From assembly GCA_951406725.2 (NCBI GenBank), contig OX597826.1:82274001-82338000 (forward strand): a stretch of DNA of 64,000 nt, given 5' to 3'. Source of the stretch: Octopus vulgaris. Lineage: Eukaryota. The position numbers and the translations under genes are program-made. Below are positions 47,433-51,407 of the stretch, in pieces. The notes under the pieces were generated by a model that saw only the letters and a program-made list of their open reading frames with translations, was not told where the DNA came from and did not search any database. Position 1 is the first letter of the stretch. Every line of letters begins with the position of its first letter.

Positions 47433-50100
47433 ATATATATATCTGTGTGTGAGCGTGTGTGTAAATTCTCACTCATACACAAACACACACAAACACAAAC
47501 AAATGCACATACAGAGAGATAAACTGTTTTATGCAAATCTCACTTTGTGTGTGTATGTGTGTGTGTGCCTGTGTGCGCGCGTGCGTGTGATGAAGAAAGG
47601 TGGGAGAAAGATTGAAATGCTCAATTTATGCAAAGTAATGGTTCTGTAGAATTCCATTCTTCTCCGTTTCGTTTTCCTGATTGATGAGTGTTGTTTGTGC
47701 AGTCCAATGGTGGATCGTGTTTCTACTTTCGAAGTTTTTGTTATTGATGTAATTGTTATCGTTTGATGTTCTTGTTCATATTGTTATTGTCTTGAAAGAA
47801 TTTATAAAATAGATGCTTCAAGCAGAGTGATCAAGGAATTAGAAGCTCAGGGCTATTCTATCGTGCCTTTGACCAAAGGAATTCCAGTCGTGACCTTCCG
47901 TTCTCTAATTCATATGCTATATCTAAAACTACAGACTATAAGCTGTAATTACGTTCGTTTATGGCAATAAAATGTGATTTATGGGCAAATTGTCTTACAT
48001 TTCTCGGGTCAAGCTACCCAAAGGGATTCCTCTCCTGTTGCTTTTTGCTGATTTCGCTATTGCTTAGCCTCCGGTCAACTTTATCACCAAAAATTTTCTG
48101 AACTTTACATTTTCTTATATTTTGTTGGAATATATACTGTACTGTGTGATTTGAGTGAATTTTGGTGCTTTTTCTATCATATTGAGTGTATTCGCTGTAG
48201 CAGTTTTATTGCATTTTTGTTCTTCTGGTTACTTGGCCTCACGTCCAACCTGGTAATACATACGTCCGATCAAACACCAAACTGTCTTTTTCTCATAAAT
48301 GTAAAATCCATAGTCACATCATCCATCGTCAACTTTGTGAGACAGAAAACAATGGTTGAAGCTTTTCTTCTTTTGTTTATATATATATATATATATATAT
48401 ATATATATATATATATATATATATATATATATATTATGTATATATCAATGTACATACACAGCGAATTGTAAACTCGAAGATAGCGATATAATTATAAAAC
48501 ATTTGACGCATATGTGTGTATGTATGTGTATCTGTGCCTGCATGCGTGTGCGTGTGCGCGTGCGTGTATCTGTGTGTTATATTTGATCTTTTTAAAGAAT
48601 TTTTCATCTTTCCTTATTCCACTTTATTTTTAATTTACAACAACACGTTTAGCAACTCCCCCTGGATGACGCTTCTATATGTTCCCAATCTTAGTTTCCC
48701 ATCGAACCCATGTAACGCCGTTTAGTCAATGAGAAGTGCATTAGCCGTATGGAATGGTTTTACAACTGATGAAATCTGCAATGGTAGTTTACATTTTTTT
48801 AATTCTAAAGTATGGTAGATATAATGATATAATTTTGTGTGATATATTTCTATAATTTGAATTTTGCTCTTAATACTTCTATAGTTATTGTATATAGTAT
48901 AATTCTGTTATGAAAGGAGTTCAGGTGTCTCTTAAGTGCCCCGGAGGATGCCAAACCCTCACAACTAGAGCAGGACAGAGATGACCAGAGAACTAAAGAT
49001 CCTATGTATTGTAATAGATATGGTCTGCATAAATATGTCAGAGCTCAGAGATATAGGCCCCATTGTACTCCAACACATTTACCTAGGAAGTGTGTTCGTT
49101 TCACTACACTGATAACCATATGGAGCAAATGCACGTGACATATAAATCCGACTTCATATAACGATTAGATAACAAGACTATGATAAATGTGTTTAATATA
49201 GAGGCATCTATGAATAAATAGTTTTCGATACGAACACTGACTAATTTCAGTTTGAATAGAGAAGTTTGTTAACAAGTAGCTTTATATAGGTTTCCACTTT
49301 TCTATTTAGATATCTATTAATACATGCTTCTTTGTATCTGCCGGTACATACATACATACATACATACACATATATACATATATATTTGTATATATGTATA
49401 TATATGTGTGTATGTGTGTTTCTGTGTGTGTGTATGTGCATATATATATATATATATATATATATATATATATATATGTACGTAGGTATTTATGTGTTTG
49501 TGCGTGTGTATTTGTGTATGTTTCAGATTATTGATGTTTCAATAATGTTTTGTTTCGTTATGATAATAAGCTATAAAGCAGATCAATGATATTGTTTTTA
49601 GCCACCTTATCAGCAGACGACGACTATAAGCATTATGCCTACATACCAAATATTACCCCTGGAAGGAATGAAAAAGAACAGCTGTAGAAGCGGCGCATTT
49701 TAATATTGTTTAGATTGTCACTACCAGCTAAGCACTTTTTTTTCAACTATTCAAGAACATGATCAAGCTCCAGCTTGACCTTGTCTTCATAAACTGCCAG
49801 GTCATTGAGTACATTTCATTTACAGCTACCATCAGACGAAAGGGTTTCTAAAGATTTTCCATCGGCACAATATAACTCGCAAGATGTGGGCGACCCAAGG
49901 CTAAGAAAACGTCCGAATTATTCGAAAGCAGACGCTTGGCTATACTGTGCAAATACATATTTTAACTGTTACCTAACTATATTAGTTATCAAGTAAACGT
50001 ATATCCATTTATACGTATATACATTTATAAATGCATATATATATATATATATATATATATATATATACTTTATTTTAAGCAGCAGAAAATTCAACAAAAT

Positions 50101-50138
50101 CTGTTACTCTGAGTTTCTCGTTGCCGTTCATCAGACAG
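50101..50138 (-). ncRNA. Minimal type-I hammerhead ribozyme motif (mirror copy)
   Basis: Exact reverse complement of 50154-50191. Confidence 0.82.
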
Positions 50139-50153
50139 TTTTTGCTAGAAAAA

Positions 50154-50191
50154 CTGTCTGATGAACGGCAACGAGAAACTCAGAGTAACAG
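50154..50191 (+). ncRNA. Minimal type-I hammerhead ribozyme motif
   Basis: ctgt CTGATGA a-cg-gcaa-cg-a GAAA ctcagag TA acag. The core is intact, stem I is ctgt/acag, stem II is capped by a GCAA tetraloop, stem III is ACTC-a-GAGT, and the triplet is GUA. Confidence 0.82.
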
Positions 50192-51407
50192 ATTTTGTTG
50201 AATTTTCTGCTGCTTAAAATAAAGCATATTACTCTACCACTGGTATTTGAGTACTCTTTTTTCCACCTTGTTTCACATTTATGTGTTTACTCCGGTATAT
50301 ATATATATATATATATATATATATATATATATATATATATATATATATATATATACACACATTCATATATATATATATATATATATATATATATATATAT
50401 ACATACATATATACATATATATATATAAATGCATTTATAAATATATATGTATTTATATATATTTATATACATATACATTTTTAAATGCATACATACATAC
50501 ATACAGATATCTACATAAATTGACCCACACATACATACACTCCAACATACATGCATTCTTACACACATACATGCACAGATGCGTACAGATACGTACACAC
50601 ACACACACACACACACACACACACACACACACTCATTTATATATATATAATACATAGGCACGCATACCTATGTAGATATAATATAACTTTACAAACAGAT
50701 ATTTTGAGGTGTGGTTTGAAGGCTTCATTATCAGAAATCTCTTAAGTTTCAGACGATTCTACTACACGTATTTTCGTACTTGTTCTTCTCACTAAATGCC
50801 ATTTTCTGGTGAATGTGGACTGACACCGTTTGTAGCTGAGACATTACATAACAAACGAAAGACAGATATAAAAACATTTATATCGATTACTAAAGCTATA
50901 TTGATTTTTAAAGATTGATGGGTTGGCAAGAAACAATTATTTATCTAGACGGAAAGGCGACGAACGAAAATAGTAAGACACCCGGTTTAAATGAATTGCG
51001 GTATTTAATGATGCAGAGTACAAACCAGATCGTACTCAATATCAAATGAATACCTGTTTCTGCTAGCCTTGAAGCAGGAAACATTATCCATGGCGCTTCA
51101 GCCACGACCATTTCATCGTTTATGCGGCTAATGCAGTGTATATATAAGAATAGGTTTTACAATGAACCCCCCATTTTATAATACGCTAGACCATGCTTAA
51201 GGAGCTTGTCTCCTTTGTCAGTCGGTAGATAAGCTCTTTTGTAACAGAAAATGTTTTGTTCGTGGCTAAGTGTTGTTTTAACTCTCATTTCTAGCAATGC
51301 TGGTGCTTACTTCCACCTTTAGTTACTGTTAGTACTTCCGTATATACATATATATATATATATATATATATATATATATATATATATATATATATATATA
51401 TATATAT

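Follow-up and report, generated by a model that had tools for sequence, protein, structure and literature searches.

A palindromic 229-bp insert in the Octopus vulgaris genome as a likely aborted insertion of a young Hydra-clade Penelope-like element

We analyzed a 64,000-nt stretch of the Octopus vulgaris genome (contig OX597826.1, positions 82,274,001 to 82,338,000), called here the window; all insert coordinates are given in window numbering. At 50068-50296 the window carries a 229-bp insert made of a 76-bp perfect inverted repeat, a 5-nt loop and a 72-nt tail, embedded in (TA)n. We read it as two short pieces of the pseudo-long terminal repeat (pLTR) of an intact Hydra-clade Penelope-like element (PLE), set head to head in a (TA)n target, likely by an aborted twin-primed run-off insertion; the probability of this reading is, in our estimate, about 0.7. 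An earlier sequence-only reading had taken the insert for a very young non-autonomous ribozyme element. The origin from PLEs, the hammerhead, the youth and the mutual exclusion of the hairpin and ribozyme folds were all upheld. The self-copying non-autonomous element was not: the insert derives by truncation from an autonomous element, and its junction is apparently remade at each insertion.

Anatomy of the insert

Positions within the pLTR are given with respect to the tail end (q0 = 50296; negative values lie upstream). The predicted hammerhead cut is then at q-109 and the short end of the insertion at q-72. The features are as follows.

50016..50067, no strand: (TA)n target, left side (sequence and repeat scan)
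50068..50150, minus strand: inverted arm, a pLTR piece that reaches from the short end, 72 nt upstream of the tail end, to q-154
50101..50138, minus strand: hammerhead motif of the inverted arm, predicted cut 50105, mirror of 50187
50144..50150, no strand: head-to-head junction, unpaired GCTAG plus 2-nt AA overlap
50149..50296, plus strand: direct arm together with the tail, a 148-nt stretch of the autonomous element's pLTR
50154..50191, plus strand: type I minimal hammerhead motif, predicted cut after 50187
50218..50224, plus strand: AATAAAG, short end of the insertion, adjoining CATAT; putative second reverse-transcription start
50225..50296, plus strand: 72-nt tail between the two putative start sites
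50297..50355, no strand: (TA)n target, right side (sequence and repeat scan)

The arms 50068-50143 and 50149-50224 mirror each other perfectly over 76 bp around the loop GCTAG, with the tail and the (TA)n on both sides placed as the sequence-only reading had described; the inverted repeat grows to 81 nt at 99% once the TA flank is included. The full hairpin has a predicted folding energy of -138.5 kcal/mol (z -23.5), a value matched by 0/200 shuffles.

We found both pieces of the insert in the pLTR of an intact copy of the element (locus L172). The segment 50068-50150 is the exact reverse complement of L172:4675-4757, while 50149-50296 matches L172:4682-4829 exactly, and matches most of 20 intact loci at 100% or close to it. 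The last 2 nt of the inverted arm (50149-50150) overlap the direct arm. The tail had been called unique; an exact 30-mer from it, however, occurs 5,740 times in the genome, and in intact copies the tail continues into the 5' untranslated region (UTR) and the open reading frame (ORF).

The parent element

Intact loci have the layout pLTR, ORF, 3' UTR, pLTR, with a unit of ~3.36 kb. The single ORF codes for a protein of 710 amino acids (aa) from the first methionine, with reverse transcriptase (RT) and GIY-YIG endonuclease (EN). Out of 9,050 candidates from the protein search, 150 matches were scored; many of these lay in a 727-codon frame, and 40 such loci were examined (L164-L183 and L214-L233). 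The frame measured 727 codons from stop to stop in 40/40 of these loci, which were picked for this ORF. The ORF identity to L172 had a median of 99.7% (the minimum, 0.40, stems from an ungapped comparison). Long loci extend upstream via a 3' UTR of ~1.1 kb into the RT and GIY-YIG frame, and the junction from tail to ORF through the 5' UTR was found 99 times in the genome.

The motifs RWK, DKT and YRDD were each present in 40/40 intact frames, and so was a CxxC (CRLC-type) beside the EN; the presence of CRH and the absence of CCHH were judged by eye. The CxCX5C linker (CNCKNESSC) was present in 23/40 intact frames. Truncated copies L061, L062 and L064 have CNFKNESSC, in which F takes the place of the second Cys; these copies nonetheless lie in (TA)n. 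Neighbors in the protein atlas bear HTH_animal, GIY-YIG and RVT_1, with scores from 0.96 to 0.99. Pfam gave nothing for either the 507-aa or the 727-aa frame, and the PDB search gave one match, judged to be due to chance.

The copies have the structure of PLEs with an endonuclease: a partial-tandem pLTR, an inverted 5'-truncated copy and a tail at one end. They also show the (TA)n preference, since 79/88 short ends adjoin TATA and 72/88 long ends are followed by ATA. The Hydra clade, as described in PMC8557442 (Hydra-1_Obim, Hydra-2_Amil), shares with this family the ORF of ~710 aa with RT and C-terminal GIY-YIG, the RWK and DKT motifs, the CxCX5C linker, CxxC with CxH, the (TA)n target and a hammerhead near the 3' end. 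On the other hand, that clade is described as <3 kb and Hydra-1_Obim has 2.5 kb, compared to ~3.36 kb here with a 3' UTR of ~1.1 kb. The paper says "generally", so we count the length as a deviation, not an exclusion.

On these motifs and a comparison of sequences by eye, the family is almost certainly a young, autonomous PLE of the Hydra clade. It is not the published Hydra-1_Obim, which has another hammerhead and an RT that by eye has clearly diverged. A miniature inverted-repeat transposable element or fold-back DNA transposon was also rejected, given the asymmetric ends, the variable length and the continuity with the RT ORF.

Copies in the genome and diversity of junctions

The genome searched comprised 2.8 Gb in 227 contigs. 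At least 40 copies of the whole 229 bp were found at 99-100% (40/40 of those scored, of 657 candidates); these near-identical copies measure 229-230 bp and six are identical. A degenerate hammerhead 28-mer had 6,972 matches, and close head-to-head hammerhead pairs (4-26 nt apart) numbered 1,464. The exact junction of the window insert occurred at 50 places.

For a sample of loci we took the first 100 tail matches among those listed, all on contig C1, which gave 99 loci (one holds two matches; L131 was covered with merely 482 nt upstream). These loci comprised 70 short inverted copies, 17 short copies without an inverted arm and 12 long copies. Five short inverted copies (L037, L044, L052, L068 and L125) were mis-paired by the aligner and left out, so that 65 were counted. 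Among these 65 we observed 54 junction types, and in the 50 listed junctions identical types reappear in old and young subfamilies. The window junction itself occurs in both polarities: in 30 of the 50 copies the tail was on the right 17 times (the window insert among them), on the left 12 times, and one copy was irregular. Such diversity, along with the two polarities, argues that the palindrome is made anew at each insertion.

Paired arms agreed at 272/281 subfamily sites, with 9 discordant compared to ~105 expected at random. The arms therefore had a common source, though not necessarily one molecule. Beside the insertion at L051/L052 there is a 328-bp local duplication of the flank, plus a second, 39-nt tail fragment.

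If the insert were a non-autonomous ribozyme element, as the sequence-only reading proposed, with transcription and re-insertion of the whole palindrome, this could account for the 40 or more near-identical copies of 229-230 bp; priming of a hairpin RNA at both sites might in principle also invert the polarity of the loop. The exact junction, however, is found at just 50 places against 1,464 close head-to-head pairs. The exact-junction copies occur in both polarities and in two allele backgrounds that are also present in the parent family. Furthermore, no variant shared by and private to the exact-junction mini-palindromes was found among 30 copies, and arm lengths form a continuum up to full length. 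We therefore hold a self-propagating unit to be very improbable. A non-LTR retrozyme or other non-autonomous unit was rejected likewise, on account of the head-to-head arrangement, the variable junction and the two polarities.

An assembly fold-back chimera is still less credible, with a likelihood close to nil. No contig spans the whole palindrome in the four public runs that cover the 229 bp in pieces, and the locus itself is known from the assembly. Yet the arms are asymmetric, the ends are fixed, target duplications are seen, and hundreds of loci lie on many contigs. Similar arm-to-arm joints also appear in short-read contigs of run X5, perhaps related to the source of the assembly, at varied places (at least 15, plus 8 more). 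Out of 24 public runs listed, 19 hold at least half of the element's words, all as contigs with a guessed RNA status. The sequence-only reading had also suggested that the element may be self-silencing, or a double-stranded RNA substrate for ADAR or Dicer. No imprint of editing was found in genomic copies, where the unmirrored changes show no A>G excess (C>T 12, G>A 10, T>C 9 and A>G 5 of 49).

Ends of the inserts and target duplications

In 62/65 short copies the inverted arm ended at q-65..-74; the direct arm is long in this sample by construction. Full-length inserts with both ends visible had one long and one short end in 22/22 cases (14 versus 8 by polarity), and the same was true for 29/30 exact-junction mini-palindromes. 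This pattern would be expected from two priming sites 72 nt apart. Informative flank matches, found in 7/88 short inserts, measured 13, 13, 13, 13, 14, 15 and 19 bp; in the other inserts the duplications are hidden because the target is pure (TA)n.

Fold-back self-priming is the interpretation given in PMC3846280 for such palindromes in Adineta Penelope, with priming on an antisense template; in the present case one strand would fold on TTTTT/AA and copy itself. A hairpin with GCTAG as its loop can indeed be drawn at the junction, the arms are concordant, and rare inserts with two long ends exist (L014). In 17/30 exact-junction copies, the window insert included, the foldable strand nevertheless begins at the short end, and such a strand could not template the tail. 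Nor does folding back explain why 22/22 full-length inserts, whose arms are asymmetric and kilobases long, have one long end and one short end. We regard this explanation as improbable, if slightly less so than the unit element.

A sharp stop on the first pass and its absence on the second

Both arms of the insert stop at q-151..-155, 10-13 nt upstream of helix I of the hammerhead. Of 159 first-pass arms, 79 reach q-151, and among these 48 stop by q-155 and 52 by q-160; in young copies alone 28/45 stop at this boundary. The second pass was followed in 40 full-length copies (L178 and L227 being two units of one locus). Here 7 copies ended before the boundary, 33 reached it, and 0/33 stopped in q-151..-160, the limits varying from q-163 to q-2985. 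The difference between the two passes had a Fisher p of 4e-12 (1e-9 in another computation). This result points to mini-palindromes made from an RNA that would end at q-155, and to long copies made from a continuous template.

The position q-155 is the A of an initiator-like CCATTCT (q-157..-151), 13 nt before helix I. In some joins both arms end at q-153..-155, or extra A's lie in between, as expected of run-off. A 3' splice site at TTCTAG was rejected as the cause of the boundary, since no common upstream exon was found in the 50 listed junctions.

Alternatively, the same element and the same twin priming may have operated, with the boundary at q-152 marking not the 5' end of the RNA but the place where the initiating RT pauses, or where the nascent complementary DNAs (cDNAs) can first anneal; one template class would then suffice. 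CTAG, the commonest junction, sits at q-152, and an older subfamily has TTAA there. The partner cDNA would be elsewhere on the second pass, which would also abolish the stop. Against this, CTAG overlap is missing from many joins that end at q-153..-155, and some of these contain untemplated A's. Upstream of CTAG, at a distance of 9-27 nt, there are seven other 4-bp palindromes, where few arms end (6 in q-170..-161). The non-inverted copies L054 and L091 stop at the boundary too, and the stop is identical from both start sites despite the different cDNA lengths. We find such a pause or annealing point rather unlikely, albeit the strongest of the competitors.

Several observations weigh against a run-off end of the template or against the twin-primed scheme as a whole. 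The commonest single junction (6/65) uses the CTAG palindrome, so microhomology helps to shape the peak of stops. The CCATTCT motif is short, and inspection by eye revealed neither a conserved TATA nor a downstream promoter element. The inverted arms of the 12 long loci are outside the tally; about 9 of them pass the boundary, and 52/79 would become ~52/88. The drop in genome counts across the boundary, from 6,972 (hammerhead 28-mer) to 1,550 (a 23-mer ~50 nt upstream), speaks for the stop, but the two patterns cover subfamilies unequally. The agreement of paired arms is also expected from two RNAs of the same active source, as subfamilies differ in age. Arm ends show no peak at the predicted hammerhead cut (2/135 arms at q-105..-112), and cleaved linear RNA is thus not seen as a template. 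Finally, L014 and L071 carry the tail in both arms, that is, two long ends, and L014 is a complete 300-bp palindrome; these two may reflect same-site priming on both strands or true fold-back.

The hammerhead motif

On the plus strand, helix I is formed by 50154-57 and 50188-91, and the core by CTGATGA (50158-64) and GAAA (50175-78). Stem II has 2 bp with a GCAA loop (50166-73), and the palindromic helix III, ACTC-A-GAGT, lies at 50178-86, with the predicted cut after A50187. The motif thus has the CUGAnGA, GAAA and UH elements, helices I to III and the palindromic helix III of a minimal type I hammerhead. In place of the G10.1-C11.1 pair it has A.A; many Hydra hammerheads have T.T there in the published table (PMC8557442). 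Each arm holds all these parts, as had been described earlier.

The bare motif does not exceed chance in the window: there were 2 matches compared to 0.78 expected, and 20/100 shuffles reach 2. Rfam gave 62 matches in the window up to E 10, none of them a hammerhead; the microRNA matches among them are due to the perfect hairpin. The putative identity as a hammerhead is supported by context, namely by helix I (ctgt/acag) and helix III arms (actc/gagt) identical to those of Hydra-2_Amil (PMC8557442). Among the subfamily changes within the motif, 4/5 fall at free positions, namely N7, the N of GNRA, 11.1 and the center of helix III; the fifth is U4C, in older copies.

Compared to the minimal hammerheads of metazoan PLEs (PMC4209133), the motif is alike in being of type I, with a short helix I and a palindromic helix III suited to dimers. 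It differs in lacking the G10.1-C11.1 pair, in its very short helix II and, in older subfamilies, in the C at position 4. Every row of the Hydra table has a stem II of at least 3 bp, compared to 2 bp in the present family. In an older subfamily, the complete stem II region (10 nt) is identical to the sequence given as loop 2 in the Penelope-2_NV row of that paper's supplement (PMC8557442), which may be chance.

Stem III, called unclosable earlier, can be drawn with 3 bp and a 3-nt loop, though the monomer fold has a predicted energy of merely -1.0 kcal/mol; the helix III dimer duplex is predicted at -7.4 kcal/mol. Judged from the predicted folds, the hairpin and the ribozyme exclude each other, as proposed, and in a transcript through the mini-palindrome the hairpin would outcompete the ribozyme fold. 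In one full-length copy (L231), the upstream direct arm starts at, or one base before, the predicted cut.

Proposed mechanism

From the positions of ends and joins, we consider twin priming combined with a strong stop the probable mechanism. The GIY-YIG endonuclease would cut (TA)n with a stagger of 13-15 nt, in line with the duplications seen in a few informative copies. One target strand would then prime at the tail end and the other 72 nt upstream, as suggested by the fixed ends and by the in vitro behavior of the anole element PAc. The stop at q-151..-155 would correspond to the transcript start, and the arms to strong-stop cDNAs copied from RNA that had not been cleaved. Joining of their two antisense ends, via a 0-6 nt overlap or a few untemplated bases, would build the palindrome afresh each time. 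The mini-palindrome itself is likely a dead product.

The template of full-length copies would be continuous: most likely a circle of unit length, generated when the 5' and 3' hammerheads cleave as a dimer, or else a tandem read-through RNA. More tentatively, and at somewhat less than even odds, we suggest two template classes, with capped linear RNA leading to mini-palindromes and a hammerhead-made circle leading to full-length partial tandems. On the linear RNA, twin priming at two sites close to the 5' end would give strong-stop cDNAs; on the circle, such priming would continue into a full-length copy.

The steps have precedents among PLEs. For PAc, reverse transcription in vitro starts at two internal sites that bound the tail, both target strands are cut and extended, and the protein is a predicted dimer; ribozyme cleavage needed the protein and was dispensable for insertion in vitro (PMC11167929). 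Transcription of D. virilis Penelope starts inside the pLTR (PMC2377424), and Cervera and de la Pena have put forward a circle made by the hammerhead (PMC4209133).

Relation to known elements

In LINE-1 twin priming, two target-primed cDNAs yield an inversion, and LTR strong-stop DNA is a short cDNA that runs off the 5' end of the RNA from an internal start. Unlike these, the present element appears to have two fixed starts near the 5' end of its RNA, with neither poly(A) priming nor a tRNA primer.

PLEs regularly show inverted 5'-truncated copies, palindromes at the junction and tails on one side (PMC8557442; PMC3846280; PMC8969392). A head-to-head inverted 5'-truncated copy with a junction palindrome is also known from D. 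virilis Penelope and Adineta Pen2a (PMC3846280) and from PAc (PMC11167929), and Schistosoma was described as early as 2014 as having opposite-strand hammerhead pairs, spaced by 100-700 bp (PMC4209133). Penelope/Poseidon elements share with this family the tail at one end only, the target duplication and the two internal start sites. In contrast to them, the commonest product here is the two ends alone, in thousands of copies, with a first-pass stop that is missing on the second pass. PLE tails are given as 30-40 bp, compared to 72 nt here. Non-LTR retrozymes (bioRxiv 10.64898/2026.07.22.740005) are similarly small, non-coding and PLE-derived, with a type I hammerhead; they consist, however, of head-to-tail tandem units with two same-sense ribozymes, while the insert is head to head with one ribozyme per strand.

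Recently active Penelope-like families have been reported in an octopus, in a text that, as far as available, does not name Hydra (PMC13282606), and the present family may already have a consensus in the repeat library of that work. In the openly accessible literature, that library, Repbase and Dfam aside, we found no strong-stop or second-pass analysis, no such family and no such counts in print. As a stand-alone "twin ribozyme element" the insert is explained and ordinary. What appears to be new is a young Hydra-clade family with strong-stop and second-pass counts; inverted pLTRs, tails and hammerheads were already known.

Other features of the window

An older copy of the family (87%) lies at 44565-44718 on the minus strand, with a single arm and tail ending in (TA)n and no inverted arm; its core is CCGACGA, with A-U at 10.1/11.1. 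At 55573-57160 there is a 36-bp tandem repeat with 44 copies and 97% matches, which leaves 571 codons open on the plus strand (a 12-aa repeat) and has no credible Pfam match. A 159-codon frame at 21372-21851 on the minus strand resembles, by eye, the region after the RT core of another PLE family and had no Pfam match.

Implications

How PLEs build tandem and inverted structures, and what role the hammerhead has in this, is stated to be open in PMC8557442 and PMC11167929. In the young octopus family many copies have intact ORFs, two putative start sites are mapped exactly, the target is known, its duplications measure 13-15 bp and the stop is sharp. These features lead to exact predictions for the copying mechanism of PLEs. 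If true, the two-template scheme would offer a single explanation for the pseudo-LTR, for the inverted pLTR and for the tail, and would give the dimer-only hammerhead a purpose. For the host, any of its transcripts that cross one of the close head-to-head hammerhead pairs, at least 1,464 in number, would fold into long hairpins there, which might feed editing or small-RNA pathways. For the family, the sibling copies likely record how Penelope-like elements copy themselves.

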